Below, one piece after another: positions 1-15,203 of a stretch of 39,609 bases of DNA; the first letter of the stretch is position 1; every line of letters begins with the position of its first letter. Location: NCBI GenBank assembly GCA_020051955.1, contig JAGVQB010000047.1:1-39609 (forward strand). Reading direction: 5' to 3'. The notes beneath the pieces were generated by a model. That model saw only the letters and a list, made by a program, of their open reading frames with translations. It was not told the DNA's origin and did no database searches. Both the position numbers and the translations under genes were made by a program. The stretch comes from a bacterium (GTDB lineage: Bacteria; Patescibacteriota; Patescibacteriia; UBA9934; GWF2-40-263).

Positions 1-20
1 GCCGTAACCAGATATGCCGT

Positions 21-99
21 GTTATGTGATGTGCATGTTTTACTTTAATCCCGATAGCAATCGGGATTGCTCTAAAAAAGAATTTTAATTTTGTTTTTT
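21..99. repeat. Left inverted repeat (putative recombination-site arm) of the RM/Shedu cassette
   Basis: 21-46 GTTATGTGATGTGCATGTTTTACTTT matches the reverse complement of 5955-5980 at 24/26. 69-99 matches the reverse complement of 5910-5940 at 30/31. A palindrome AATCCCGAT-AGCA-ATCGGGATT (47-68) sits between the two blocks. Confidence 0.9.
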
Positions 100-205
100 G
101 TTTTGGATTTTGGGCAGAGGGGTTAGGGGTGAATGCCCAAAATCCAAAACTCCTTATTCTGTTTGAGGGAGGGGCAAGAGGGGAACTAAAGGGGTGAATT
201 GCCCC
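100..205. other. Two tandem hairpins with related G-rich loops downstream of res
   Basis: Perfect 17-bp stem 100-116/134-150 with loop GAGGGGTTAGGGGTGAA. 7-bp stem 171-177/199-205 with loop GAGGGGAACTAAAGGGGTGAA. Confidence 0.75.
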
Positions 206-219
206 GACCGAAAACTTCC

Positions 220-2913
220 CTATCTGTTTTCAATTAACTGTTTTTCAAACACTTCTTCAAACTTTTCACGCAAAGTACTATTGACTTGTCCTTCGTTGAA
301 GAAAGGCAAACCAATCAAACGAAAATCCTTATTTTCTATCTTCAAATCAACTGTATGACTTTTTTCAATTTCAATCAAAAGTTTCTGTTTCCAACCTTCT
401 TTTGATTGCTCAAAAGTATTTTGCGCGTCCAAAAATTGATCACCTTTCGGCTCAACAAAAATCTGATACATAACTTCTTGCTTTGTCTTCTTCTCTGTCA
501 GAAACAAAACGAAATCTGGATAAAATGGCTCGCCGTTTTCATAGCTGTAAATTTTGAAAAACTGTTCATTGCGGAGTAAGGCAATGTCTTGATATTTTTT
601 CTTTAACTTTGTTATTGCCTCATCAATAAAGCGCAAAAATGATTCTTCCTCGCTCGTTCCCCGGATTTCGTTTTGAGCAAACCAATCCCGAGAAGAAAAA
701 TCAAAATCTCGCATATTTTGCGCTCGCGGACTTTCGCTATCTAATTGCAATACCTTGTCACTTTCAAATATTTTTTGGATCAAATGAGCTTTGAATTCCT
801 TTGTTCCGTAGTATTCCTTTTTCTCTTTGCCAGCGATTTCCAGCACTTTATCAATCACAAATCCGGCAATATTCAATTTTTCAATCTGCAAAAGATTTTC
901 AACCTGCTCGCTTGTGCCTTTCACCTTGATTTTTATTCCGCCAAGATATTTTTCATTTAAAATAAAATCTTTTGTGGATTCTATATTGCCGAATATCTTT
1001 TTTAGCTCATTAAATCGTCCGGCAGGCATTTTTGCCAAAGCGGTGCGGACAATATGTGTTCCCAAATCAGCAATTTTATAATCCCGAATTTCTATTTTTG
1101 CTTTTACTCCGGCGCCAGCCCCCGCAACAAACAAATCTTTTTCTATGGCTTCTCGCGTTGGTAGTTGAAAGATGTTTATTTCAGCATTGTGGTCAAATTC
1201 CGCTTTGGCGTCCGAGAGCGCAAAAACATCCTTTCCTAAATTTTCCTTGCGAGAATTTAAGAAAATATAACCTTTCTTCCAAAAATCACTGTTTTTAAAA
1301 TCACCTTTGATTTTGATCTCTTTTTGTACTGTTCGCGACGGCATAATACCTTCACGAACCAAAACACTTTCCAATTCTTGAATATAGCGAGGATTCGTTA
1401 CGCTGTGATAATAAAGCTGTTCCAAAATCCGAAGTTCGTTTTGTATGTCGGTATCAAATTTTCGCCTATATGCGTCCGTAAATTCGCCGAGCGTAAATGG
1501 ATAATATCTAGCGCCTCGTCCGATAAGTTGCGCCTCTTGCACAGTTGTTTTACCCGGTTTATTGCTTTTGGCGTCACGGCTGTTATACAAACGGACAATG
1601 TCAAAAAGATTTAAAACATCCCAACCCTCATTTAATTTTTCTGTTGCAAAAATAGCGCGGATTTCATTGTTTTGATCTTCCAACGAATTAAGTAAAATTT
1701 GTTTTTGCTCTAAATCTTTATCTTCATCAACCGTCAAGCATTTTTCCGGTGCAAAATCGCTTTTAATTTCTGCCACTAAATCCGCGAGAGTAATTTTTTG
1801 CTCATTGAAAAATTCAAATGCTTTTTGCAATGTCGCGTCTTTAATTGCCGTTTGCTGTTTTAGGTGTTTTTCGCCGAGTTCAGAAATAAGTTTGTGAAAA
1901 GAATCTTTGAAAATACTTGAAACGACAATTTGCGGATTATGTTCTTTTGATATTCCTTCTTTCGGAATACTTACTCTGTTAGCTTTGAACATAACCACGG
2001 GCTTTAGTGCGATTTTATACTTTTCTGCCACCTTACGGCGATATTGTGAAATAATCACCGCCGAAAGCGCGCGTTCCATAATCGGCGCGTTTATTTGTAA
2101 AGTTCGCACATCTTTTGAAAACCCGTCCAAGCGATATTCTTTCAGATCATAGCGATAAATTGCTTTGTCTTTATACTTTTCCAAAATTTCCGGATATTCC
2201 TGCTCCAAACGAGCCGTCGCCGTAAATTCCAAAAGCACATTATCCTTTTGGCTGTTGGCGTTCAAAATCCGCATCACTGTATTTTCCCAATTGCGTCGGT
2301 CTTCTTCTTCGGTTTTGCTTATCTTGGCATTTGTTTCCGCGGATAGATTATGCGCTTCATCCGCAATCAAAACAATTTTCTTGTCCTCAAAATCTTCATA
2401 AGTCAAAACATTTTCGCGAGCGAAATTAAAGCGAGAATGCAAAAGCGCAGTCGTGGAAAAGATAATATTTATATCGTCGTCATTTACTCCTTCAAAATTA
2501 TCCACCTCTTTGATTTTTATTTCCTGTCCGCCAAGTGAAATTTTATCGGCAAATAAATACTTTTTAGAATTCGGATCAAGAAAATTGGCCTTGGTCTTTT
2601 GGATAATGTTGCCAAGGCGAGTAAAAAAAATGAAATTGCGGTATCCCTTTTGATAAAAATACAAAAAATTGGCGGACATGATGAGCGTCTTGCCCGAGCC
2701 GGTCGCCATATTAAACATCAAATGAATCGGTTTTTGTTTTTGGTGGTATTCCTCAACATAATAATAAAAACGCCCCAGCGCTTCTTTTTGGTATTCGCGC
2801 GCCGGAAAAGCCGGATTTAGATTTTTCAAAATATCCGTTTTTTCCGTCGCCTTGTTTTTGAAAACATCAGCACCGGCAAAGTTTTTATATGAGTTAAATT
2901 CGTCGTATAACAT
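220..2913 (-). CDS. res: Type III restriction-modification system restriction (Res) subunit, SF2 helicase plus C-terminal PD-(D/E)xK nuclease
   Basis: Motifs MATGSGKT (I), DEAH (II), TAT (III), LNEGWDV (V), QLIGRGAR (VI); C-terminal YPDFVLF...VEPKG; same strand as and downstream of mod. Confidence 0.92.
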   Translation of the reverse strand: MLYDEFNSYKNFAGADVFKNKATEKTDILKNLNPAFPAREYQKEALGRFYYYVEEYHQKQKPIHLMFNMATGSGKTLIMSANFLYFYQKGYRNFIFFTRLGNIIQKTKANFLDPNSKKYLFADKISLGGQEIKIKEVDNFEGVNDDDINIIFSTTALLHSRFNFARENVLTYEDFEDKKIVLIADEAHNLSAETNAKISKTEEEDRRNWENTVMRILNANSQKDNVLLEFTATARLEQEYPEILEKYKDKAIYRYDLKEYRLDGFSKDVRTLQINAPIMERALSAVIISQYRRKVAEKYKIALKPVVMFKANRVSIPKEGISKEHNPQIVVSSIFKDSFHKLISELGEKHLKQQTAIKDATLQKAFEFFNEQKITLADLVAEIKSDFAPEKCLTVDEDKDLEQKQILLNSLEDQNNEIRAIFATEKLNEGWDVLNLFDIVRLYNSRDAKSNKPGKTTVQEAQLIGRGARYYPFTLGEFTDAYRRKFDTDIQNELRILEQLYYHSVTNPRYIQELESVLVREGIMPSRTVQKEIKIKGDFKNSDFWKKGYIFLNSRKENLGKDVFALSDAKAEFDHNAEINIFQLPTREAIEKDLFVAGAGAGVKAKIEIRDYKIADLGTHIVRTALAKMPAGRFNELKKIFGNIESTKDFILNEKYLGGIKIKVKGTSEQVENLLQIEKLNIAGFVIDKVLEIAGKEKKEYYGTKEFKAHLIQKIFESDKVLQLDSESPRAQNMRDFDFSSRDWFAQNEIRGTSEEESFLRFIDEAITKLKKKYQDIALLRNEQFFKIYSYENGEPFYPDFVLFLTEKKTKQEVMYQIFVEPKGDQFLDAQNTFEQSKEGWKQKLLIEIEKSHTVDLKIENKDFRLIGLPFFNEGQVNSTLREKFEEVFEKQLIENR

Positions 2914-2914
2914 A

Positions 2915-3955
2915 TTATTCTTTTAATAAGCTCAAAAATGTCTGTATTCTTCCAAATAATTCATCGAAGGTTATGATTTCAACCTCTTTAGAGAAAGACC
3001 GATACAATTCAAAAGATTTTTTCTCATCATTGTTTTGTAAGTTTTTTATTTTACCAATAACTAAAATACATTTGGCATTATGTAAAAATTTTCCATTATT
3101 ATCACCATGGGTATTTATATAGATTTTTCTTTGATTTAAAACTTGATTTATTCCGCCGGTCAATTCGTCGCTCATACTAAAAATAACATTGTCTTTTCCG
3201 TCCTCGTCTCCGCGATATTTACTGCCAACAATTTTTGTTTCTGGTGTTTTTATTTCAATAAAAGCTAAATTACCCGTAAGATCATTTTTATACAATAAAT
3301 CACCTTTTACGCCCCCCTTATCGTCGTCTTCTTTCCCTCCACAATAAAATTTTTTTCCTATCAATATGAATGGACAAGAAAATATTTGAGATAATATCCA
3401 TGTATGATTCTGGAATAACTGTTGCCAAAATTCCTCGTTATTATTACCTATGTTGTCATTCCAATTTTTTATGATGTCTTCTAAACGCGCAACACTAACC
3501 AAGGAATCAATATTTTTTAGCTTATTTTGATTTAAGTGTTTGATAAATGAAAAATCAATTTCTTCCGGATTATCAATAATTACTTTTTTCTTTTCAATCT
3601 TTTGTCCGATTGCATGATATTGTGCATTAAGAAATTCTGTTAATTTTTTAACAGCTTCTCCATTACCAGCATCGATTTTCATCGACTGAAAATCGCCATG
3701 AAAATGATCCTCTGCTTCATCAACTACAGCCTCCCATGCGTCAGTGGTCTTTTTTCTTTTATATTTGTTTAATTTCAAATCAAAATGGTGAATTGTTCCG
3801 TCTTTCTTGGGAATATGAAAAGCATGAGCGATTATTGTAGTAAAATCTGTTTTATAAATTACTTGTCTTGAAACACCAAAACCTCTTGATTTAGCGTCAA
3901 TAGAAATTGCCTCAATTTCATCGTTTAGTTTTACATCAAAATTATTTTGATCCAT
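2915..3955 (-). CDS. Shedu-like (DUF4263) anti-phage nuclease with unassigned N-terminal domain
   Basis: C-terminal half NEEFWQQLFQNHTWIL...GDLL...FIEIKTP...ELTGGINQV...CILVIG...SFELYR...VEIITFDEL follows the DUF4263/SduA PD-(D/E)xK pattern. Confidence 0.85.
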   Translation of the reverse strand: MDQNNFDVKLNDEIEAISIDAKSRGFGVSRQVIYKTDFTTIIAHAFHIPKKDGTIHHFDLKLNKYKRKKTTDAWEAVVDEAEDHFHGDFQSMKIDAGNGEAVKKLTEFLNAQYHAIGQKIEKKKVIIDNPEEIDFSFIKHLNQNKLKNIDSLVSVARLEDIIKNWNDNIGNNNEEFWQQLFQNHTWILSQIFSCPFILIGKKFYCGGKEDDDKGGVKGDLLYKNDLTGNLAFIEIKTPETKIVGSKYRGDEDGKDNVIFSMSDELTGGINQVLNQRKIYINTHGDNNGKFLHNAKCILVIGKIKNLQNNDEKKSFELYRSFSKEVEIITFDELFGRIQTFLSLLKE

Positions 3956-5798
3956 AAAAATTCTCGTTTAACTCTTTGTCTTTCTTACTTACTCCGTACT
4001 CTTTGTCTTCAATCTCGCTCAAATTGACATAAAGCTGATTTTTATCCAAACATGCAATCAAAAACTTTTTTTGATCGGCAATACTCAAATCCTCAAAATC
4101 TTTGGCGTTGGCGACAATCATTTCCGGCTTTACTTTATAGCTCAAAAATGCGGTTTCTTTCATTTCGTCCCAAAGTTTAGCGAGTTCTTTTCCTGTTTTT
4201 GTATCGCGAATATTTTCTATCCATTCCTCGTTCCATTTAGCGAGTTCCATATAAACAAAATCCCCGCCACCTTTCCAATTTACATCTTTTGAAATTCCAC
4301 CCTGATCGCCAGCGATAACCTCTTTCAATCTCGCTTCCGGCAGATCATGAATGTAATCCATTTGCTCAATACCGATATATTGCCGACCTGTCTTGTGTGC
4401 GGTCGCTAATGTAGTGCCCGTACCCGCAAAAAAATCTAACACCAAATCGTTATTGTCTATTGTTAAATCAAAAATTCTTTGTAAAAGTTTTTCTGGCTTT
4501 TGTCCGGAGAATCCCGTGTCTTCACTTTTACTCCTATTCATGTTTCCGATATCTCCCCACAAGTTATCTATCTGTTTTCCAATTTTCAGTCTTTCATTCA
4601 GATAATATTTTTCTCTAATAGTTTTATCGGTAATATATAATCTTCCTTCCTTTTCTTTCGCTTTTAATTTTTCTTTCGTCATTCTCCATCCTTTTGCTGG
4701 ACATTTCCAAATCCTTCCCTTGTTGTCTTTATAATCGTAAGTTGTTTGCGGACCAGGACCACCTGTTTTTTGCAGACTAACGGTTGTGTACTTACCTTTT
4801 CCGTCATTATCGTCCTTATTAAACGAAGCTATATCGATCTCGGTTAATTCTTTTGTAATGTTATTTATTCCGGAACTTGGATTTTTTGAGTAAAACAAAA
4901 TTGTATCAATATTCCAAGGTAAATTTTTACTTATAGTTTTACCCGCATATGTTCTATGCCAGTATATTGAATTTCTATAATTATCTCTTCCAAAAATATC
5001 ATCTAACAAAACTTTCAGATATGCTTGTTCGCTATCGTCGCATTGCACAAAAATAAAACCATCATCCCTCAATAAAGTTTTTGCAACTTCTAATCTATTC
5101 TTCATAAATACCAACCACGAGGAGTGATTGAAAGAATCGTTATAATTAAAACCATCGTTTCCCGTATTATATGGCGGGTCAATGTAAATCAATTTTACTT
5201 TTCCGGAGAATTCTTTTTTGAGCGAGGCGAGGGCGAGTAAGTTATTGCCTTTAATAATCAAATTATCTTTGATCGTTCCTTTTTCATCGCGATTGAAGCC
5301 GTCCAGTTTGTGTTCGCCTTTTTTGTCTATCCGCTTAAAATTGGTAAAAACTTTGGCGTCTAGCAAGCGATTGATGTCGTCCGGCGCCAACGTTTCGTTA
5401 TAAAAAATCTCGTCTCTTTTTTGGTCTTCCTTGGTCATTCCGCCTTCCAAAACACAATCTTTATATGGCCAAGTTAAAACAATTTCTTTGTTTTCGCTCA
5501 CATATTCATCGCCAGCAGTTAAGCCGATTTTGTTCTTAAAAGCGGTATAAGAATCCGGCAGAAATTGTTTATTGGAAACAAAACGGATAAATTTCTCTTT
5601 ATCAAAAATCAACGTCTTTTCTACTTCAAAAAAGAAGTGTTGCTTGATCGCTTTTTCGGAAAGCAAAAGTTTTATAAGTTCAGGGTCATTTTTTCGTGCC
5701 AATTCCTGTGTTTGGTTTTTTAAAAGTACGCCGTCTTGCGAAACAAGGCGTTCGTCTTTTTTTAATAAATCTGTTAACTGTTCAAATATGTTTTTCAT
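3942..5798 (-). CDS. mod: Type III RM DNA methyltransferase (Mod), beta-class N6-adenine MTase
   Basis: NLIIKGNNLLAL, then catalytic YIDPPYN preceding SAM-binding LDFFAGTGTT, with a variable target-recognition region between them. Confidence 0.93.
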   Translation of the reverse strand: MKNIFEQLTDLLKKDERLVSQDGVLLKNQTQELARKNDPELIKLLLSEKAIKQHFFFEVEKTLIFDKEKFIRFVSNKQFLPDSYTAFKNKIGLTAGDEYVSENKEIVLTWPYKDCVLEGGMTKEDQKRDEIFYNETLAPDDINRLLDAKVFTNFKRIDKKGEHKLDGFNRDEKGTIKDNLIIKGNNLLALASLKKEFSGKVKLIYIDPPYNTGNDGFNYNDSFNHSSWLVFMKNRLEVAKTLLRDDGFIFVQCDDSEQAYLKVLLDDIFGRDNYRNSIYWHRTYAGKTISKNLPWNIDTILFYSKNPSSGINNITKELTEIDIASFNKDDNDGKGKYTTVSLQKTGGPGPQTTYDYKDNKGRIWKCPAKGWRMTKEKLKAKEKEGRLYITDKTIREKYYLNERLKIGKQIDNLWGDIGNMNRSKSEDTGFSGQKPEKLLQRIFDLTIDNNDLVLDFFAGTGTTLATAHKTGRQYIGIEQMDYIHDLPEARLKEVIAGDQGGISKDVNWKGGGDFVYMELAKWNEEWIENIRDTKTGKELAKLWDEMKETAFLSYKVKPEMIVANAKDFEDLSIADQKKFLIACLDKNQLYVNLSEIEDKEYGVSKKDKELNENFYGSK

Positions 5799-5909
5799 AG
5801 TTTTTAGTTTCGTAAATCAAGTTATTAATATTGTATTCGTTTTCCCCTTATAAATAAATCGTTTTCGTAGCGGAGCGGAGAAAACACCTTATACCCCTTT
5901 CTAATAAAT

Positions 5910-5980
5910 AAAAAACAAAATTCAAATTCTTTTTTAGAGCTGGGCGATAGCCCAAAAGTAAAACATGCATTTCACATAAC
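5910..5980. repeat. Right inverted repeat of the RM/Shedu cassette, ending in CACATAAC
   Basis: Reverse complement of 21-99 except that the internal palindrome is TGGGC-GATA-GCCCA (5941-5954). Confidence 0.9.
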
Positions 5981-5993
5981 TGGTTTTTATACG

Positions 5994-6045
5994 AACTGTT
6001 TTCGGATACACACACGTATTCGTTGTGTATCTGATGTGGACAGTT
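5994..6045. other. Imperfect hairpin between cassette end and recombinase (candidate att-site structure)
   Basis: AACTGT(5994-5999)/ACAGTT(6040-6045) outer stem; TCGGATACACA(6002-6012)/TGTGTATCTGA(6024-6034) inner stem, a single bulged C, then ACG-TATT-CGT. Confidence 0.55.
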
Positions 6046-6092
6046 TAGCATTGACAGAAGTTAAAAAACAAGTAAATATTAATAGCAGAAAT

Positions 6093-6131
6093 AACCTCCC
6101 CTCTATCTTAAGAGCTGGGAGGTTTTTGTTT
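6093..6131 (+). terminator. Intrinsic terminator-like hairpin in the recombinase leader
   Basis: AACCTCCC(6093-6100)/GGGAGGTT(6117-6124) with inner CTCT/AGAG, followed by TTTGTTT; TTGACA at 6051-6056 lies upstream. Confidence 0.5.
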
Positions 6132-6155
6132 AATTCACTTTAGTTACTAATTTTT

Positions 6156-6992
6156 ATGGCAAATATTCAATTTCATAATTTGGATCAAGCGTTTCTGGAA
6201 CTCGAGAGGGTTCTCACTCTTAGAAACTATAGTCGTGCAACCTGTAAAAGCTACAGAGGATGTCTTTTGCGTTTCCTGCAGACGCATCCAGATGAGATGA
6301 ACAAACCAAATAAAACGTCGATTGAGAATTTTCTGCTTGATCTGTATGGAAAAAATTCTTCTGCGCAGACAGTGACATCATACCTACAAGCGATTCAGTT
6401 CTATTACCGTGAGGTAATCGGTGTGAATATTGACCTGCAGATCAAAACACCCAGGCGGCCATCTCGGCTTCCTGTTACATTGAGCCACAAGGAAATTGAA
6501 AGGATTCTATCAAACGTTTCGAACGATAAGCACCGCACTATGATTGCGCTTGCGTACGGATCGGGACTTCGCGTGTCTGAACTTACAGATTTGCGCGCGG
6601 GAAGCATAGATTTTGACGAAGGCGTCATATATGTCTATCAGGGGAAAGGTAAAAAGGATCGAATCACGCTTTTGCCGCAGGTAATCATTAAGGAGTTGCG
6701 AAAAAGTACAGCAGGCAAATGTCCGAACGACTATCTATTTGAGAGTGAACGTGGAGGCAGACTCTCATCACGCTCGATACAAAAAGTATTTTCACACTCT
6801 TTAAAAGTTTCGGAAATAAAAAAGCCAGCGACCTTTCATTCACTTCGGCATAGTTTTGCAACGCATATTCTCGAACAGGGAACGGATTTGCGATTTATTC
6901 AAAAACTTCTTGGACACTCGAATATTCGAACGACACAACGCTATACACACGTCTCGACCGCATCACTTCGTGCGATTCAGAGCCCGCTATGA
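6156..6992 (+). CDS. Tyrosine recombinase, integron-integrase-like/XerD-like
   Basis: N-terminal LRNYSRATCKSY SAM-like domain; full catalytic set R (GLRVSE), K (GKGKKDR), HxxR (HSLRH), H (LLGH), Y (TTQRYTH). There is no obvious IntI-specific insertion between YLF and HSLRH. Confidence 0.9.
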   Translation: MANIQFHNLDQAFLELERVLTLRNYSRATCKSYRGCLLRFLQTHPDEMNKPNKTSIENFLLDLYGKNSSAQTVTSYLQAIQFYYREVIGVNIDLQIKTPRRPSRLPVTLSHKEIERILSNVSNDKHRTMIALAYGSGLRVSELTDLRAGSIDFDEGVIYVYQGKGKKDRITLLPQVIIKELRKSTAGKCPNDYLFESERGGRLSSRSIQKVFSHSLKVSEIKKPATFHSLRHSFATHILEQGTDLRFIQKLLGHSNIRTTQRYTHVSTASLRAIQSPL

Positions 6993-7202
6993 TGTCATTA
7001 GCGGTTGTCTCCGTTAGTTACATAACAACCCTGACCCCTCCATGCGGGATAACCACCCCCGACCCCTCCTTAAAAAGATTTCTATTACATCTTCTCTTCT
7101 CTCCACTTCCCAACCTCGATAACCTTGATTCCCTCGCAAACCTTGTAGCTTCTGTACCAATATATTTTCATTCCCCCACAATTTTGATAGGATGATCCTA
7201 CT

Positions 7203-8639
7203 GTGAGCATTGATGTTGCAAGAAATACAGCATTTCTAACAACAGCTTCCGTTGGGCAAAAGATAATAGCTTTTGTCTATTTTTTGTTTCTCGCGCGAGT
7301 GATGATGCCAGAGGCGACTGGTCAATATTTTTTGGCGGTTTCGATTACGGTCATTTTCACCGTGTTCGCGGACATGGGGATTACGCCTGTCATTATCCGC
7401 GAGGTGGCAAAACAGCCGTCTCGCGCTCGCGACCTTTTATCTCACGCCATTTCTCTCAAGATCCCGCTGATTATTTTTTCAATGTGCGGTGCGATATTCA
7501 CCGCGATGGCGCTTGGGTATGATCCGCTGATTGTAAAGTTGGTTGCTCTGGCGACTTTTGTTCTCGCGCTGGACACGACACATCTTTTGTTTTACGGAGT
7601 TCTGCGCGGCTTTCAACAGTTGAGATTTGAATCACTGGGTGTTTGTGTTGGCCAGCTTGCGACAGGAGTAATCGGTGGCCTGATACTCTGGCTACATCCA
7701 TCGCTAACTTTGCTTGTTGTAGCGCTCATATCAGGCTCGACAATGAACGTTCTTATTTCAAGCTCGAAGGTTGTAAAATTACTTGGCGCGCGCGCCCTAT
7801 TGCCGCGATGGCAACGTGCTGACACGAAGTGGATTATCAAAAGCGCTATCCCGTTCGCGCTCTCTTCAATTTTTGTTAAGGTCTATTCTTATGTTGATTC
7901 AATTTTGATTTCAAAATTCTTAGACGTAACAGCGGTCGGGATTTATAGTGTTGCGTATCGGTTCACTTACGCGTTTCAGTTTTTGCCACTCGCGTTTGTC
8001 GCGGCTTTGTACCCTGGCATGAGCGCTGTGGTAGGGAAGGACGAGGGGGCGCTCAAGCGAATATTTTTGCGGGGCATGTGGTACGTTGCGCTGTTGTGCG
8101 CGCCACTTGTGTTTGGCATTTGGGCTGTCGCGCCTGAAATGGTTCTGCTCGTGGGTGATGGCTATGCGAGCGCCGCACCAGTTCTTGGTGTGCTGGTTTT
8201 TGTCCTGATTCCAATTTTTTTGGATTTTCCAGTTGGCTCTCTTCTCAACGCGTCGGGTCATCAATCAGTGAAAACAGCAATCATGGGCGTTACGATGATA
8301 ATCAATGGCGCGCTGAATTGGATTCTTATTCCACGTCTTGGAATTATTGGAGCCGCGTACTCGGCGCTGGCGTGTTTTTCTTTTATGCTAATTGCAGGCT
8401 TGTGTTTTGTGCCGAGGATACTTCCGACCTTCCGATATTTTGTCTTGCTTAAATCGCTGTTCCCGATTTTTCTAAGCGGTGGGTTGATGCTGTTGGTTGT
8501 CGTGTATCTAAAACCGATCACTGGTTGGTATGCTGTTATTCCTGTTGGCGCCGTTGTGTATCTTGTATCCTTGTTTCTTACACGCGCGGTTAATCGTGAT
8601 GACATAGCCCTATTCCGCAAAAGTTTTAGACGTTTATGA
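7203..8639 (+). CDS. Wzx/MOP-family oligosaccharide flippase
   Basis: About 12-14 hydrophobic segments; VARNTAFLT start, DMGI..IIREVAK, DSILISKF...VGIYSVAY; first gene of a glycosyltransferase cluster. Confidence 0.88.
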   Translation: MSIDVARNTAFLTTASVGQKIIAFVYFLFLARVMMPEATGQYFLAVSITVIFTVFADMGITPVIIREVAKQPSRARDLLSHAISLKIPLIIFSMCGAIFTAMALGYDPLIVKLVALATFVLALDTTHLLFYGVLRGFQQLRFESLGVCVGQLATGVIGGLILWLHPSLTLLVVALISGSTMNVLISSSKVVKLLGARALLPRWQRADTKWIIKSAIPFALSSIFVKVYSYVDSILISKFLDVTAVGIYSVAYRFTYAFQFLPLAFVAALYPGMSAVVGKDEGALKRIFLRGMWYVALLCAPLVFGIWAVAPEMVLLVGDGYASAAPVLGVLVFVLIPIFLDFPVGSLLNASGHQSVKTAIMGVTMIINGALNWILIPRLGIIGAAYSALACFSFMLIAGLCFVPRILPTFRYFVLLKSLFPIFLSGGLMLLVVVYLKPITGWYAVIPVGAVVYLVSLFLTRAVNRDDIALFRKSFRRL

Positions 8640-9727: not shown

Positions 9728-10431
9728 GAAGTATTTCTGTCATCATTCCAACATATCAGCACGCGGGTTCGATCGTTAAATGTTTGGAATCGCTTTTCGC
9801 GCAAACAAGACTTCCCGATGAGATAATTGTGGTTGACGATGGGAGCACTGATAACACACAAGATAGGCTCGCGCGGTTTGAATCGAAGATTACGTACATC
9901 GCACAGAACAATGAGGGCGCGCCATCCGCGAGGATGCGTGGGTTTGGTGCGTCAACTGGGGCTCTCGTGCTTTTTTGTGACGCGGACGTATTGTTAGCGC
10001 GAAACGCGCTTGAAAAATTAGAACAAGCCCTTGATTTGAATCCTGGCGCTTCGTACGCGTATTCGAGTTTTGCGTGGGGAACAAAGAAATTTTCTTCCAG
10101 ACCGTTTGACGCGCGAGAACTTCAAAAGGGAAATTTTATCCACACAACAGCCCTAATACGTCGAGAACATTTTCCTGGTTTTGATATTGATCTGAAACGC
10201 TTTCAAGATTGGGATCTGTGGTTGACAATGTTTGAGCAAGGACATATTGGTGTGTTCGTGAATGAGGAATTATTCAGTGTTACTCAAGAACGAGGAAGAA
10301 AAAATATTTCTCGTTGGCTTCCATCGTTCGTTTATAACATACCTTGGCAGAAGATCGGTTGGGCACCGCGAGCTGTTCGTGAGTATCTGAATTCAAAAAA
10401 AATTGTTTTTAAAAAACATCATCTATTATGA
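9724..10431 (+). CDS. Glycosyltransferase family 2 (GT-A)
   Basis: ISVIIPTY, IIVVDDGSTD, FCDAD, QDWDLWL. Confidence 0.92.
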   Translation: MRSISVIIPTYQHAGSIVKCLESLFAQTRLPDEIIVVDDGSTDNTQDRLARFESKITYIAQNNEGAPSARMRGFGASTGALVLFCDADVLLARNALEKLEQALDLNPGASYAYSSFAWGTKKFSSRPFDARELQKGNFIHTTALIRREHFPGFDIDLKRFQDWDLWLTMFEQGHIGVFVNEELFSVTQERGRKNISRWLPSFVYNIPWQKIGWAPRAVREYLNSKKIVFKKHHLL

Positions 10432-11957
10432 GACAATTTTTCGACAAGATGTTTTGGCGATCGTTTTCGGTTATTGTTGTTATTTACCTAATAGCAACAC
10501 TGGCGTACCAAAGCGATTACTCAGGCTTGATTCTATTCGTAATGGCTGTGGCTTCAGCGTTTTTGTCATACAAGAGTTTGCACAGGGGGCTGGCTCTTGC
10601 GTTCCTAGAATTATTTTGTAATCCCCACGGAGTGCTTGTTATTGCCCCGTTTTTTGGTTTCAGTTTCACGTTGCGCATGGCGATCTTTGTTGGCGTGATG
10701 TTAGGGTGGGGGATTGGCATCTTTACGCGCCGTTACCATATCAGCATTCACGATGTTCGTTTGAAGCAGTTTATACTTTTAGCTCTTGCCATCGCGATTG
10801 GGTTTATTATGGGCGGTGTCTCAAGAGACCCATCAATTGTTTTCTCCGATGGAAACGCGTATTTCTTTCTATTGTATATTTTTCCGATCCTGTCGGTTCA
10901 CTGGACCCAAGAGCGTCGCCACGAATTACTGCAACTTCTTGCCTCCGGCGCTGTGTGGGTGTTATTTCTTTCGCTCGGACTTTTGTATGTATTTTCACAC
11001 TTTGGCGAAAATACACTGCGAACAGTTTATACTTTTTTTCGAGATTTACGGGTCGCGGAGATAACGAACCTTGGCAGTGGTGCATATCGAATCTTTATTC
11101 AATCTCAAACTTTTGTTGTTATATTTGGGTTGATGTTCTTTTCGTTTTGCGCGTTCGTGAATTGCAAACGATGGTGGATACTTTTCGAAAGTTTAATTAT
11201 TACTATTCTTCTTTTGTCTTTATCGAGAAGTTTCTGGGTTGGACTTGCTCCCGCGGTTGTGTTGATTATTGCTTTGATTTGTTCCAAAGGTCGCGCGTCT
11301 TGTCGCGCGCTGATGAAACAAGTTCCGCTCCATCTAGCCGCCGTTTTTTTAGGTGTCGCGATGATATACATCGTCGTACTTTTTCCAATCCCGCCACAGC
11401 GCGTTGATAGTTCTTTTTTGGCGGAGACCTTCAAAGATCGTGCGGTTGAGGATCAAGAGGTCGCGATTTCGAGCCGATGGAATCTTTTGCGTCCGATGGT
11501 TAATTTAATTATTGAAAGTCCGCTTGTTGGGCATGGCTTTGGAAAAGGCGTGACATTCCAAACAGACGATCCTCGCGCGCGCGAGGTTTCTCCCGATGGA
11601 ACATGGACAACGTATTCAATGGAATGGGGATGGCTTGAGTTGTGGATCAAGATGGGATTACTGGGGCCGGTGGGGTTTCTTTACCTAGCATTTGAGATTG
11701 TAAAAAGATTTTTGAGAGGTATTAATGGCGAGAATGGTTGGTTGTCAATTGGTTTGATTGCAAGCCTCGTATTTATCTACGCCACACATTTGTTCTCGCC
11801 CTATCTCAATCATCCCATTGGTCTTGGTTTACTTCTATTCTTGATTCCGTTTCTTCCAACAAAAAACAGCGACGCTATACCAGTCGCCGTCCTCGAATTC
11901 GAACCAAGACTGAAGGCGGCAAAAGAGATGCCTGTTACCGCGTCTCGATCTACGTAA
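10428..11957 (+). CDS. O-antigen ligase/Wzy_C-like polytopic membrane protein
   Basis: Multiple transmembrane segments; LSLSRSFWVG, then a soluble loop with SRW..., PLVGHGFG and WLELWIKMGLLG. Confidence 0.8.
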   Translation: MRQFFDKMFWRSFSVIVVIYLIATLAYQSDYSGLILFVMAVASAFLSYKSLHRGLALAFLELFCNPHGVLVIAPFFGFSFTLRMAIFVGVMLGWGIGIFTRRYHISIHDVRLKQFILLALAIAIGFIMGGVSRDPSIVFSDGNAYFFLLYIFPILSVHWTQERRHELLQLLASGAVWVLFLSLGLLYVFSHFGENTLRTVYTFFRDLRVAEITNLGSGAYRIFIQSQTFVVIFGLMFFSFCAFVNCKRWWILFESLIITILLLSLSRSFWVGLAPAVVLIIALICSKGRASCRALMKQVPLHLAAVFLGVAMIYIVVLFPIPPQRVDSSFLAETFKDRAVEDQEVAISSRWNLLRPMVNLIIESPLVGHGFGKGVTFQTDDPRAREVSPDGTWTTYSMEWGWLELWIKMGLLGPVGFLYLAFEIVKRFLRGINGENGWLSIGLIASLVFIYATHLFSPYLNHPIGLGLLLFLIPFLPTKNSDAIPVAVLEFEPRLKAAKEMPVTASRST

Positions 11958-12897
11958 GTACCGTGCCGTCAATGTCGGGGTGGCCAGCAATAAACGCGGA
12001 GGCTGACATTTTTGGTTTGCCTTCGGGTTGTAGTTCAAGAATTTCCAATGTCCCATTTGACGCAGAAACAAACACGCGATCTTTTTTAATTGAAATTGTC
12101 CCAGCCGGTAAATCAGCGGATAAATCTGTTAGTCGCATTCGTATCAGCTTAATGCGCACGGTTGAATCGTCAGATGATCGCACAAGACACCACAACCCCG
12201 GCCAGACGCCAAATGCCCTGTGTTTGCGTTCAATTACGTCCATTGGTTCAGACCAGTCCACGTGCCCATCCTCACGTGCAAGAAGCTTTGTAAGCGTCGC
12301 CTTGGATTCATCCTGACGCATTGGGACGATATCGCCGCAAGCGTGACGCTTAAGAGTTTCTACGAGGAGCCTAGTGCCGGTCGCCTTCACTTTTTCCTCC
12401 AGGCACTCATACGTCTCATCTGAATCAATTGTGATAGGTTCGCTTGCGAGGATTGGTCCGGTGTCCATTCCCTCGTCCAACAGCATAACCGAAACGCCGC
12501 CTTGAGCGTCACCAGAAAGAATTGTTCCTTGCATTGGTGATGGTCCGCGGTGGCGTGGAAGTAGAGAAGGATGCACATTAACAACTCCTAATTTTGGTAT
12601 CTGCAAAACAGCTGGAGGCAGAAGTTTGCCGTACGCTACGACCACAAAAATATCAGCAGCGAATTTTTTTAGATCCTCGACGGCCGCTAGATCACGCCTT
12701 AAGGATTCTGGTGAGACCACAGGTAAACCATTTTCCATCGCAAGAACTTTTATCGGTGAAGGAGTAAGATTTTTCCCTCTTCCGACTTGTTTGTCAGGCT
12801 GTGTTACAACGCAAACAACATTGAACTTTTTTTCGTCAATAAGCGCTTTAAGAAATGGGCAACTAAACGTTGGTGTGCCAAAGAAAATAATCTTCAT
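11950..12897 (-). CDS. fmt: Methionyl-tRNA formyltransferase
   Basis: MKIIFFGTP, VTQPDK, NVHPSLLPRHRGPSP, MDTGPI. Confidence 0.97.
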   Translation of the reverse strand: MKIIFFGTPTFSCPFLKALIDEKKFNVVCVVTQPDKQVGRGKNLTPSPIKVLAMENGLPVVSPESLRRDLAAVEDLKKFAADIFVVVAYGKLLPPAVLQIPKLGVVNVHPSLLPRHRGPSPMQGTILSGDAQGGVSVMLLDEGMDTGPILASEPITIDSDETYECLEEKVKATGTRLLVETLKRHACGDIVPMRQDESKATLTKLLAREDGHVDWSEPMDVIERKHRAFGVWPGLWCLVRSSDDSTVRIKLIRMRLTDLSADLPAGTISIKKDRVFVSASNGTLEILELQPEGKPKMSASAFIAGHPDIDGTVLT

Positions 12898-13382: not shown

Positions 13383-15203
13383 TCAAGAGTATAGCGTTGT
13401 GTCAATGATATATCTATCTGGAAGTTGAGAAAAGATGGCGCCAAGTTCATGGAATCTTTCGTTGGAAATGCCGATCTCAAGAATTGCTCCCTTGCATGAT
13501 TGAGTTTGTTTTTTGCCGAGCACTATTCCTGGAATTGTCGTAAGTGTTTTTTGTAACAGTTCCAACGCGACTTGTGCCTTATGATCTTCAGGCTCTGTGA
13601 TTGTGACGCGCGCCCAACGAACTGTTGGTGGCAATCGATAATCTCGTCTGGAAGTCTGCTCTTCAGTAGCCAACGAGATCGGATCGTTCAACACACTTGT
13701 GAGTAGCTCTGGGCTGGAGGTCTGAATGATAAACGGTGAGCGTGATGAATATGCGACGAATCTCCACTGCCACACATCTCGCACAAGCGAAGTAAGCGCC
13801 GACGGCTCCGATGAGTATATTGGCATGTCTATGTTTGTGGCTACAATAAGATTAAATCGTTCTGGCGAAAAGGGGTCGTAGATAGTTTCAAGATAAAAGT
13901 TTGTCGCGACTACAATTGATGCGTCCGAGGAAGTCGCGTGTTCCTTATCGACGATCCGTACACTTGTGTTTGGAAAATGACGTGAAAGCTCTTGAGCGAT
14001 TTCTTGATTTCCGGGTCCAACGCGCGAAAAGTCGCGTCCTCGACATGATGGACAATGCAGAGGCAGAGGTAAAGCTTGGTGACAACGGGCGCATTCAAGC
14101 CGATTTGGAAACACGGCAAGAGACGTCTCACAAGCAGGACACAACCATCGGTGCGCGCACGACTTGCACATGAGCAATCTTGAGACTCCTTTCTGGTTAT
14201 GAGCGCAAAGCACGCGTCCTCCCTGATTCAGAACTTCAGAAATTGCCTCGAGAGTTTGATAGCACATGGTCTCGCGATCGCGTTCTTGTTTGATATCAAC
14301 GACTTGAGTCTGCGCGTTAGAATTCCACAAAAGAATTTCCGATTCATCGAAACGATCGAGGACATTGGATGTTGGCGCGTTGTCAAATAGAAAGATGTTA
14401 GCCCCAAATCGTTTATGAATCGTCCAAGCAAGTGATCGCGCGTCAAAACGTGGATTGCGATCTGTCTGCTTAAAGTTGCTGTCGCCTGAGCGCACTATGA
14501 ATATGGAAGTAATCTTTGAGTCGATCATCAAAAGAGCGGCACGCGTCCCAATCATTATTCCAGTTGGTGACGCGCGAAAGTGTTCCCATCGACGGAATCG
14601 TTGTGTTGGCGATTCATCTCCGGTTATAACGCACGTATCAAAACCAGTTATGTGAGTTCGTATCAGATCTACGTCACGCACAGTCGGCGCTAAAATCAGA
14701 ACCTTGTGATTTTCCTGAGACTGCAAGTATCCCATGATTAACGCGGTGGAGCGGCGTATGTCTGGCGATTGAATGAATAGTTTATTGCGTCCGTGCATCA
14801 GCCTAACAATTTGTCCGATATGTTCCGCCTCGGATCGCGGAAGCATTACTGGTAAATTGCTTACACTTTGGACCTCGGCTTCCTCACTGCGTTTTGGTGG
14901 ATGTTGTATAGCGCAATACAAAACAGTACTAGCTGATACTGCCAGATCATCAGCTAGCCATTCAAAAAAAGAGAGCTCATCCTCCCTTAGTGCCAAGCCT
15001 TCATAACGCGCCTTAATTGTTTTTAGTTTGATTCCGCGTTCTGGTTTATCTTTGAGTCTCTTTACGATCCCCCAAAGTGTTTCGTTCCGATAGGGCACTT
15101 CGATTAAATCGCCACACGAAAGATTCACGCCTTCCGGGACAAGATAATCAAAGACTCGCAGACGACGGCTTTGGCGTTTTAGTGGGTAAACCTCGGCGAT
15201 CAT
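13383..15203 (-). CDS. priA: Primosomal protein N' (PriA)-like, helicase motifs degenerate
   Basis: N-terminal FDYLVP...GDLIEVPY 3'-binding domain; IGTRAAL; four CxxC pairs (CKSC, CPAC, CARC, CPSC); IIQT; YRLPP. No Walker A GxxGxGKT and no DExH. Confidence 0.82.
   Translation of the reverse strand: MIAEVYPLKRQSRRLRVFDYLVPEGVNLSCGDLIEVPYRNETLWGIVKRLKDKPERGIKLKTIKARYEGLALREDELSFFEWLADDLAVSASTVLYCAIQHPPKRSEEAEVQSVSNLPVMLPRSEAEHIGQIVRLMHGRNKLFIQSPDIRRSTALIMGYLQSQENHKVLILAPTVRDVDLIRTHITGFDTCVITGDESPTQRFRRWEHFRASPTGIMIGTRAALLMIDSKITSIFIVRSGDSNFKQTDRNPRFDARSLAWTIHKRFGANIFLFDNAPTSNVLDRFDESEILLWNSNAQTQVVDIKQERDRETMCYQTLEAISEVLNQGGRVLCAHNQKGVSRLLMCKSCAHRWLCPACETSLAVFPNRLECARCHQALPLPLHCPSCRGRDFSRVGPGNQEIAQELSRHFPNTSVRIVDKEHATSSDASIVVATNFYLETIYDPFSPERFNLIVATNIDMPIYSSEPSALTSLVRDVWQWRFVAYSSRSPFIIQTSSPELLTSVLNDPISLATEEQTSRRDYRLPPTVRWARVTITEPEDHKAQVALELLQKTLTTIPGIVLGKKQTQSCKGAILEIGISNERFHELGAIFSQLPDRYIIDTTLYS

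Follow-up and report, generated by a model that had tools for sequence, protein, structure and literature searches.

The window analyzed here, contig JAGVQB010000047.1 (C61) at its complete length of 39,609 bp, belongs to a 999,590-bp, 63-contig genome (G000; 93.8% complete, 48.8% GC) of an Uhrbacteria-like bacterium of the candidate phyla radiation (CPR). Its left part holds a 5.96-kb block (positions 21 to 5980) of three minus-strand genes, with sduA wedged between mod and res, and a tyrosine recombinase gene that is divergent from this cargo and lies 175 bp from the right tip of the block (5980), as the initial annotation of the stretch had described. Viewed together with its relatives, the mod-sduA-res block is probably a gene cassette that occupies the recombinase-proximal slot of an integron-like gene-capture platform. 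The features on which this reading draws are the following.

1 to 20, plus strand: 3′ half of an attC-like junction, with the L′ box CAGATATGCCG at 9 to 19 and the spacer T at 20
21 to 103, plus strand: left inverted-repeat arm (21 to 46, arm-specific hairpin 47 to 68, and 69 to 103)
21 to 32, plus strand: distal R box ("A end") GTTATGTGATGT, with the family pattern GTTnnnnG-x-x-G-T
94 to 215, no strand assigned: conserved 3′ noncoding cassette element (repeat search, BLAST)
220 to 2913, minus strand: res, type III restriction enzyme subunit, 897 aa (Pfam ResIII, 2.6e-23; PADLOC REase_III, 8.1e-112)
2915 to 3955, minus strand: sduA, Shedu nuclease-family gene, 346 aa (Pfam SduA_C PF14082, 5.9e-22; PADLOC SduA, 5.9e-63)
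3942 to 5798, minus strand: mod, type III methyltransferase, 618 aa (Pfam N6_N4_Mtase, 7.1e-46, and TypeIII_RM_meth, 1.8e-24; PADLOC MTase_III, 5.5e-189)
5829 to 5905, minus strand: conserved 5′ noncoding cassette leader (BLAST, metagenome breakpoints)
5906 to 5980, minus strand: right inverted-repeat arm (repeat search)
5969 to 5980, minus strand: proximal R box ("B end") ATTTCACATAAC; its pattern ATTTCnnnnAAC adjoins the recombinase in relatives
5981 to 6040, plus strand: attI-like region, comprising AAC↓TGGTTTT (here and below the arrow marks the joint), the box TTATACGAAC (5987 to 5996), and a hairpin (6003 to 6012/6024 to 6033)
6156 to 6992, plus strand: IntI/XerA-like tyrosine recombinase, 278 aa (Pfam Phage_integrase, 2.5e-44; Phage_int_SAM_4, 7.6e-11)

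Judged by their predicted products, mod and res make up a type III restriction-modification (RM) system in one operon, and the sduA product is predicted to carry the DUF4263/SduA C-terminal nuclease domain, i.e., to be a Shedu protein. Contigs of four metagenome runs carried res and mod at 88 to 99% likeness. In runs X1 and X5 the sduA slot (window positions 2915 to 3950) was filled by 1025 other letters, and in runs X1 and X3 the central part of mod (4401 to 5082) by 529 other letters, which points to an exchangeable middle gene and a variable Mod core. The GC content of the cassette is 30 to 38%, against 41 to 49% for most of the remaining contig.

A repeat search of positions 1 to 7200 recovered the inverted repeat at the ends of the block as two pairs of arms, an outer one (21 to 46/5955 to 5980; 26 nt, 92%) and an inner one (69 to 103/5906 to 5940; 35 nt, 94%), which ranked first and second among the 25 inverted pairs listed (of 50 found); none of the remaining long-range pairs in that list exceeded 94% over 15 to 16 nt or 89% over 17 nt or more. 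Both segments together match at 57 of 61 positions, so the repeat, previously put at 54 of 57, is real, with its tips at 21 (GTTATGTG) and 5980 (CACATAAC). The centers of the arms differ, each having its own self-complementary hairpin, at 47 to 68 in the left arm and shorter in the right one. When searched with up to three mismatches, the 26-nt tip occurred in exactly two places of the 999,590-bp genome, the ends at 21 and 5980, and the backwards-read control gave none. A strict paired-end search of the same genome likewise returned 21 to 5980 as its sole cassette. No RNA family was matched by an Rfam scan of positions 1 to 7200 at E values up to 1.

The recombinase has affinities with XerA as well as IntI. 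It just passed the NCBIfam model NF040815 ("XerA / integron integrase"; 222.8 bits, cut-off 220) and failed the IntI model TIGR02249, which it matched in two stretches with 204.2 bits (cut-off 265); NF011946 gave 133 bits (cut-off 435). Its best solved relatives were XerA of Pyrococcus (PDB 4a8e) and of Thermoplasma (5hxy). In the alignment with IntI4 (PDB 2a3v), query residues 12 to 185 correspond to chain residues 5 to 181 and query residues 202 to 278 to chain residues 241 to 317. This leaves 16 query residues opposite 59 of IntI4, so that the approximately 43-aa insertion of IntI is absent, in agreement with the initial annotation. The latter had also described the catalytic set as complete, and R139, K164/K167, H228, R231, H254, and Y263, which we take to be the R-K-H-R-H-Y set, are indeed invariant in all nine aligned family members.

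At least 3,002 protein clusters matched the recombinase at E values up to 1e-40, under names such as "tyrosine-type recombinase/integrase," "XerD," and "site-specific tyrosine recombinase/integron integrase"; the nearest named clusters were from Candidatus Uhrbacteria. The best 80 loci in a collection of species genomes came nearly all from CPR/Patescibacteria assemblies, and in 29 of them the recombinase gene starts less than 500 bp from the contig end on the upstream side. Among 400 genomes drawn evenly from the phylum the family was present in 41, always as a single copy. The window's genome encodes a second, Xer-like tyrosine recombinase on contig C5 (34% identity). Matches at this level were the only or the second match in almost all of 40 relatives searched, 14 of which had close relatives of the window recombinase. 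The latter is not a housekeeping Xer: its distribution is patchy (41/400), its sites lie in cargo arrays, and a second, universal Xer-like gene is present.

In the relatives, arrays of cassettes lie upstream of the recombinase, each cassette bounded by inverted ends of the form GTTnnnnGATGT ... ATTTCnnnnAAC. BLAST searches with the arms and motif scans gave a distal-end grammar of ...CC(G/A)nATA-N5-(G/C)TG↓TTnnnnGATGT... and a proximal-end grammar of ...ATTTCnnnnAA↓C, in which the four variable box bases and the next 15 to 70 nt at one end of a cassette are complementary to those at its other end and vary from cassette to cassette. Of the best 80 loci, 51 were searched for inverted pairs tipped with GTT (22-nt arms, up to four mismatches); 33 such pairs lay upstream of the recombinase, in 311 kb, and none downstream, in 432 kb. 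Five were dropped (a nested pair, a pair with tRNA-like arms, an 88-bp pair, and two 47-bp pairs); the 28 kept, seven cassettes from the array of locus L025, and the window's own make up a CPR set of 36. The pattern GTTnnnnG-x-x-G-T stands at the recombinase-distal end of all 36, with position 11 being G in the distal and A in the proximal box, as in the window; the pentamers GATGT and GAAAT are present in 26. The similarity between arms extends to a median of about 71 nt. The other 35 cassettes measure 268 to 5434 bp at 30 to 43% GC, and their cargo open reading frames (ORFs) run antisense to the recombinase in 46 cases versus 6. The 48 ORFs carried by these 35 cassettes include RM genes, an AbiEii-like ATPase, an AGS_C sensor domain, radical-SAM enzymes, methyltransferases, transporters, a racemase, and a NUDIX hydrolase, a predicted mixture of defense and accessory functions. 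In L025 (genome G010), at least eight consecutive cassettes precede the recombinase gene. Arrays of uniform orientation and variable content, which the definition of an integron asks for, are a property of the family, the window itself holding one cassette. Long terminal repeats and multigene cargo, which the initial annotation had singled out as noncanonical, are unusual by the standard of integrons and normal in this family.

This fixed polarity bears on a different reading of the locus, in which the inverted repeats are the sites of a phase-variable inversion and the recombinase flips the defense operon on and off. Long inverted repeats around an operon, a tyrosine recombinase 175 bp away, and a weak similarity of the latter to the NCBIfam models for tyrosine-type DNA invertases (58 to 61 bits, cut-offs 221 to 222) are what such a switch would look like. 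Inversion at the tips would, however, swap the two boxes, and throughout the 36 CPR cassettes the distal box is of the G type and the proximal box of the A type; the 46-to-6 strand bias of the cargo ORFs goes the same way. In addition, the promoter-side leader lies inside the repeat, so that flipping would not uncouple it from the operon, and no strand-changing joint at the arms was seen in the contigs of the four metagenome runs, a weak point since contigs drop rare forms. We regard an inversion switch as very improbable. The locus had originally been called integron-like or invertible, and it is the former half of that description which the arrays, junctions, attI-like site, and variable cargo uphold.

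Adjacent cassettes meet in a junction with a constant order of elements: the ...AAC of one cassette, GTnn, an 11-nt box (L″), a loop, a complementary 11-nt box (L′), a T, and the GTT... of the next. When 42 junction candidates were set by two R-box motifs alone, L″ and L′ were complementary at 9 or more of 11 positions, at fixed register, in 19 (12 of them perfect), and in 1/42 with a shuffled 3′ part. A search by structure only (AACG, 3 nt, N11 ... reverse complement with at most one mismatch, 1 nt, GTT, within 260 nt) returned 47 sites in 81 CPR loci, all of them on the recombinase strand and upstream, with none on the other strand or downstream (335 kb upstream and 661 kb downstream). Their lengths range from 45 to 186 nt, and their stems comprise 39 distinct sequences; all 47 have T as the 3′ spacer, a position that the search did not constrain. 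Ten further loci from the phylum sample added seven sites, again all upstream and on the same strand. Since the structure search itself requires complementarity, and sets AAC and GTT, the covariation of the stems rests on the 42-candidate test, and the bias in position and strand on the structure searches. R and L boxes are separated by spacers that vary from site to site, and a TAT core is retained in the L boxes. It is these junctions that would be the counterparts of attC. The long inverted repeats pointed out in the initial annotation consist of the cassette's own R boxes and an extension of them.

Three junctions folded as single-stranded DNA gave z-scores of −2.5 to −5.9, considering both strands. 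The plus strand was the more stable one in 44 of the 47 junctions, by a mean of 2.9 kcal/mol, because box position 11, and often position 10, forms G·T or T·G there and is mismatched on the other strand. In the window's own genome, a stricter junction finder returned no site, and a loose search gave 71 matches against 62 in the reversed-sequence control, which is uninformative.

The L025 array has a junction of its own kind. A composite element of about 170 nt, with an outer stem GGCCGGCGGC.../...GCCGCCGGCC, a pair of inner hairpins, and a mini-palindrome of 37 nt whose tips resemble R boxes, recurs about seven times between its cassettes, at the following positions of that locus.

3826 to 3995: composite junction
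5153 to 5320: composite junction
6665 to 6830: composite junction
7420 to 7585: composite junction
10338 to 10480: composite junction
12470 to 12600: composite junction
14212 to 14350: composite junction

On the recombinase side of the cassette, the window reads AAC↓TGGTTTTTATACGAAC after the proximal box. Upstream of the recombinase, the motif AAC↓T(C/G)GTTTnTATRCGAA is a conserved feature of the CPR loci, followed by a second TATRCGAA-like box about 30 nt further on, and was present in 8 or 9 of the 10 loci of the fresh sample; the whole region matches loci L029/L032 and L030/L033 at 70 to 71% (BLAST). The predicted site adjoins the integrase gene in the way that attI does in the definition of an integron. 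At the opposite end of the block, the initial annotation had remarked that the window begins 20 bp outside the left tip and that further cassettes might lie beyond it. Those 20 bases correspond to the L′ box and spacer of a junction, which means that the contig starts inside a junction and that at least one more cassette is expected to the left; the array very probably continues there, to judge from matches elsewhere. Locus L054 has the same 24 nt before GTTATGTGATGT, its partner L″ box CGGCATATCTG lying 88 nt upstream after AAC-GTTT, and window positions 8 to 32 are identical over 25 nt to loci L027/L110. The leftward extension proposed earlier led nowhere within the assembly, as the first 20 to 31 bases recur in no other contig of the genome.

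The viral collection IMG/VR had been meant as a negative control for the junction finder and came out positive. It holds relatives of the window recombinase at only 32 to 39% identity, also without the insertion, on contigs (L125 to L204) of 26 to 35% GC that use the standard code and have a family-B polymerase or a large terminase near the gene (e.g., PolB in L204 and TerL in L126). The finder returned 85 sites in 33 of 80 such loci, 83 upstream and 2 downstream, all on the plus strand; examples of arrays are L147:1000-8000, L178:3300-7700, and L143:1500-6800. Of 126 phage cassettes with inverted ends, 112 had G distal and A proximal at position 11. The small cargo ORFs were codirectional with the recombinase by 80 to 6 (seven loci). 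A natural comparison is offered by two isolates of a single cultured phage species, Polaribacter phage Freya_1 (MT732463.1; L206/L207) and Freya_10 (MT732472.1; L205/L209), whose flanks are 100% and 99.8% identical and which differ by a 4,921-bp block of 12 small ORFs directly upstream of the "integrase," between two ATTGTnnnnAAC boxes. The edges of the block read ...ATTGTTTACAAC↓ and ...ATTGTTGCTAAC↓, with the integrase after the latter, and Freya_6 (L208) carries another subset. The Freya enzyme is 27% identical to the window recombinase. In the description of these phages, their genomes are given as 44.0 to 48.9 kb and the integrase is taken as a sign of a temperate lifestyle (PMC8776804); the supplements of that paper (genome maps, gene tables) might mention the variable region. 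If the cassette reading is correct, phage "integrases" of this type would gain a role other than lysogeny, and the Freya isolates would offer a tractable laboratory system for the whole family.

The junction data also speak to the chemistry. The same platform could run on classical double-strand Xer-type recombination at duplex core sites, with both strand pairs exchanged, each site consisting of an R arm, a 7- to 8-bp spacer, and a TAT-containing L arm, as for Xer at dif, IMEX, and the pdif sites of Acinetobacter. An enzyme without the IntI insertion whose best matches are XerA proteins (NF040815 above cut-off; PDB 4a8e and 5hxy) would fit such a scheme, and so would the B end and attI-like site, which together form an imperfect palindrome with a short spacer, and the TAT core of the L boxes. 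Double-strand exchange by tyrosine recombinases normally needs identical overlap regions, yet the R-L spacers vary between sites. Moreover, a duplex site has no need of L″/L′ covariation across 39 distinct stems or of pairing between cassette ends, and position 11, which pairs G·T on one strand and C·A on the other in 36/36 CPR and 112/126 phage cassettes, points, like the better folding of the plus strand in 44/47 junctions, to one folded strand. We consider duplex chemistry unlikely.

Cargo next to the recombinase turns over, as the initial annotation had predicted for relatives of the locus. Loci L039, L041, and L044 have recombinase genes that are 93 to 95% identical, no alignable base in the 1.9 kb upstream, and unrelated cargo. 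The homology shared by L041 and L044 begins 3 nt ahead of AAC↓, which puts a breakpoint at AAC↓, and ends 4 nt after the stop codon; this unit of about 1 kb (L041:9875-10817 and L044:9820-10781) is 90% identical with both flanks unrelated. Recombinase and attI-like site thus occur as a unit in different contexts, suggesting that the platform itself may be mobile. The recombinase of G011, a genome belonging to the window genome's family, has fmt, wzy, and a GT2 gene beside it, as does that of the window. Among the metagenome contigs, one passes from window position 5979 into junction-type sequence and not into the attI-like site, two others diverge directly after position 32, and position 5829 is a recurrent breakpoint. 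Contigs in which 164/215 is joined to 5829 were not used as evidence of empty cassettes, the intervening sequence being not known.

Conversely, similar ends bracket different cargo. The window's ends (1 to 161 and 5820/5840 to 5980/6008) are 92 to 99% identical to those of cassettes in L054, L064, and L065, including 98.8% over 162 nt; specifically, 5840 to 6008 is 92% identical to L054, where the counterparts of the two ends lie at 7218 to 7379 and 9759 to 9927, and 5820 to 5980 is 98% identical to L064. A tblastn search of these three cassettes with mod, sduA, and res gave no match, and their cargo is unrelated, that of L054 being a HaeIII-type restriction enzyme and a C5 methylase. The three recombinases are 46 to 48% identical to the window's. 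Within the ends, the stretch 5848 to 5922 recurs across many cassettes, and the 3′ element at 94 to 215, which contains a perfect 17-bp hairpin (100 to 116/134 to 150) and a direct repeat (125 to 164/190 to 229), matches other cassettes in L096, L042, and L065 at 75 to 88% (BLAST). As a separate observation, the shared leader, trailer, and R-box homology stops at ORF boundaries, which hints at a reusable cassette "chassis." Hairpins on TTTTGGATTTT/AAAATCCAAAA, like the one at 100 to 150, also recur in contigs C8, C24, C25, C26, C30, C44, C48, and C54 of the window's genome.

Near-identical noncoding ends of 160 bp around different cargo in distant hosts could also be taken for the terminal inverted repeats of a transposon- or MITE-like chassis whose movement depends on an enzyme from another locus, with the recombinase a mere neighbor or hotspot marker; that the recombinase and attI-like unit of about 1 kb itself occurs in different contexts would suit such an element. 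No transposase was found in or near the cassette, however, and no target-site duplication at 20/21 and 5980/5981. Nor were scattered copies of the cassette seen that lack the recombinase and have target-site duplications: cassettes and junctions occur almost exclusively upstream of this recombinase family and in one orientation, including the 83 upstream and 2 downstream sites in phages. A transposon of this kind is, in our judgment, highly improbable. Still less credible is that the repeats are duplicated regulatory elements, such as promoter or terminator modules, or a relic that has decayed and no longer moves, even though the conserved ends fall on the operon's 5′ leader and 3′ region, hairpins of the 100 to 150 type are found genome-wide, and the genome has one cassette. 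A promoter/terminator scan gave no good match at the cassette tips on the cargo strand (12 matches against 21.1 expected and 7 against 5.7 from shuffles, i.e., not above shuffles), and the R-box and junction grammar and the exclusive link to the recombinase would be left unexplained. In addition, ends that are 98.8% identical beside recombinases that are 47% identical argue for recent movement and against a relic.

For the capture platform that we favor, the recombinase would cut and rejoin at the invariant AAC↓/↓GTT of the R boxes, a free circular cassette being captured by recombination of its site with the attI-like site and excised by recombination of two array sites. The cassette site is most likely recognized as a folded single strand, as in integrons, given that the cassette ends pair, the junction stems covary, and G·T wobbles on one strand face mismatches on the other. 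From these sequence patterns we infer that the window recombinase performs the reaction, that its substrate is single-stranded, and that the cassette in the window is still mobile. Several observations weigh against this scheme. In integron integrases, an I2-bearing insertion lets the enzyme use folded attC and bypass the second strand exchange, according to Escudero et al. (2020, PMC7790495), and the window enzyme lacks this insertion. Junction hits were obtained in only 28/81 CPR and 33/80 phage loci, 29 of the CPR loci having less than 500 bp upstream. The R boxes fit the canonical 7-nt consensus of integrons in only 13/47 (R′) and 8/47 (R″) sites. Movement of whole cassettes does not explain the near-identical ends with unrelated cargo in L054, L064, and L065. 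No recombination product was seen in the window's genome, which holds one cassette and half a junction; of the words sampled from the window stretch, no public sequencing run contains a fraction above 0.20; and nearly all CPR data are metagenome-assembled genomes.

The system shares with integrons a tyrosine recombinase with a SAM_4-type N-domain beside an attI-like site; cassettes that mostly hold one gene, share one orientation, and in the CPR clade diverge from the recombinase; imperfect palindromes between cassettes, with invariant AAC ... GTT and stems kept by covariation and not by sequence; strand asymmetry; first bases of a cassette that are complementary to its own distal box; and variable cargo that includes defense genes. 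It differs from them in a recombinase without the insertion of about 43 aa and below the IntI cut-off, in R boxes of 12 nt where the canonical consensus has 7 nt, in an 11-bp L stem with asymmetric spacers (4 nt versus 1 nt) where canonical sites have a bubble and extrahelical bases, in a complementarity of cassette ends over about 26 to 80 nt as opposed to about 7, in the conserved leader and trailer modules, and in the codirectional cargo of the phage clade. We therefore file it as integron-like and not as an integron, the defining protein feature, box length, spacing, and cassette-end complementarity being different.

Archaeal XerA and Xer at dif or IMEX are similar in best sequence matches, enzyme size, and absence of the insertion, as well as in half-sites that resemble inverted arms around a short spacer. 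The resemblance ends with the restricted distribution (41/400 genomes, the other, universal Xer-like gene being that on C5), the many sites in arrays with cargo between them, and the palindromic hairpins with covarying stems. On Acinetobacter plasmids, pdif modules are cargo modules bounded by inverted Xer-like recombination sites, and their cargo differs between similar backbones; discrete, variable cargo between inverted sites is common to both systems, whereas the present one has a dedicated single recombinase beside the array, sites other than the 28-bp XerC/XerD type, junction hairpins, and a location on CPR chromosomes or phages. Invertons and shufflons served by tyrosine recombinases include phase-variable RM loci and hence likewise place an RM system within inverted repeats next to such an enzyme. 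Here, in contrast, the ends keep one polarity (36/36), the contigs, which could miss rare forms, showed no inverted ones, and the repeats lie outside the genes and include the leader.

In a search of the literature, neither cassette arrays nor attC-like sites were found described for CPR bacteria or for phages, although earlier papers may exist. Most of what is known of integrons comes from Proteobacteria, and the integrase that defines them has a unique insertion. Smyshlyaev et al. (2021, PMC8138268) place the Xer-related recombinases of candidate phyla in a group "Cand," among class-specific recombinases that possibly compensate for Xer function; the IntegronFinder 2.0 paper (PMC9024848) leaves CPR unmentioned in the text that could be consulted; and the aquifer defensome study (PMC12259885) counted IntegronFinder integrons across metagenome-assembled genomes, with the highest representation of mobile genetic elements in Pseudomonadota. 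Intermediates between Xer-like enzymes and integron integrases are lacking, and a viral origin has been speculated upon, according to Escudero et al. (2020, PMC7790495).

Against this background it is possible, if a little short of probable, that I2-less IntI/XerA-like recombinases run a second, very large integron-type lineage in CPR bacteria and phages, using hairpin sites without the domain to which the advent of single-strand recombination has been ascribed. Such a lineage would be either the missing intermediate between Xer and integron integrases or an independent invention, and a cassette-array system without the insertion would make the Xer-to-integron origin question directly testable. 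The system described here occurs in about a tenth of the CPR genomes that were sampled and also in flavobacterial phages kept in culture. It would reveal how CPR bacteria, with their reduced genomes, exchange defense and accessory genes, and it accounts for the breaks of metagenome assemblies at these regions. A conserved chassis with exchangeable cargo bears on the origin of integron cassettes as well and may expose how cassettes are born.

Three further features of the window lie between the attI-like region and the recombinase start codon or beyond the recombinase.

6051 to 6080, plus strand: promoter-like site TTGACA-18-AATATT (consensus match only)
6094 to 6133, plus strand: G+C-rich hairpin with a T run, between the promoter-like site and the recombinase start codon (read from the sequence)
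14634 to 14658, plus strand: third copy of the attI/R-box joint, in opposite orientation, inside priA (ORF 13383 to 15203, minus strand); 22/25 identical to the proximal joint

TTGACA occurs at the same place in the window's three nearest relatives, and an equivalent hairpin with a T run in L032, L033, and L025; promoter-like site and hairpin could form an attenuator that controls the recombinase. The copy in priA, 8.6 kb beyond the recombinase, includes a 16-nt exact run, and a search of 25 relatives at the DNA level gave no match to it; it may be due to chance or represent either a relic or a secondary site. Finally, 11 contigs of the window's genome (C8, C16, C35, C42, C43, C44, C46, C48, C52, C53, and C54) share one sequence about 70 nt from an end, CTGTGGGGCAAC ... 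AAAAGGAGATA ... TATCTCCTTTT ..., which may be an assembly-breaking repeat or an artifact.

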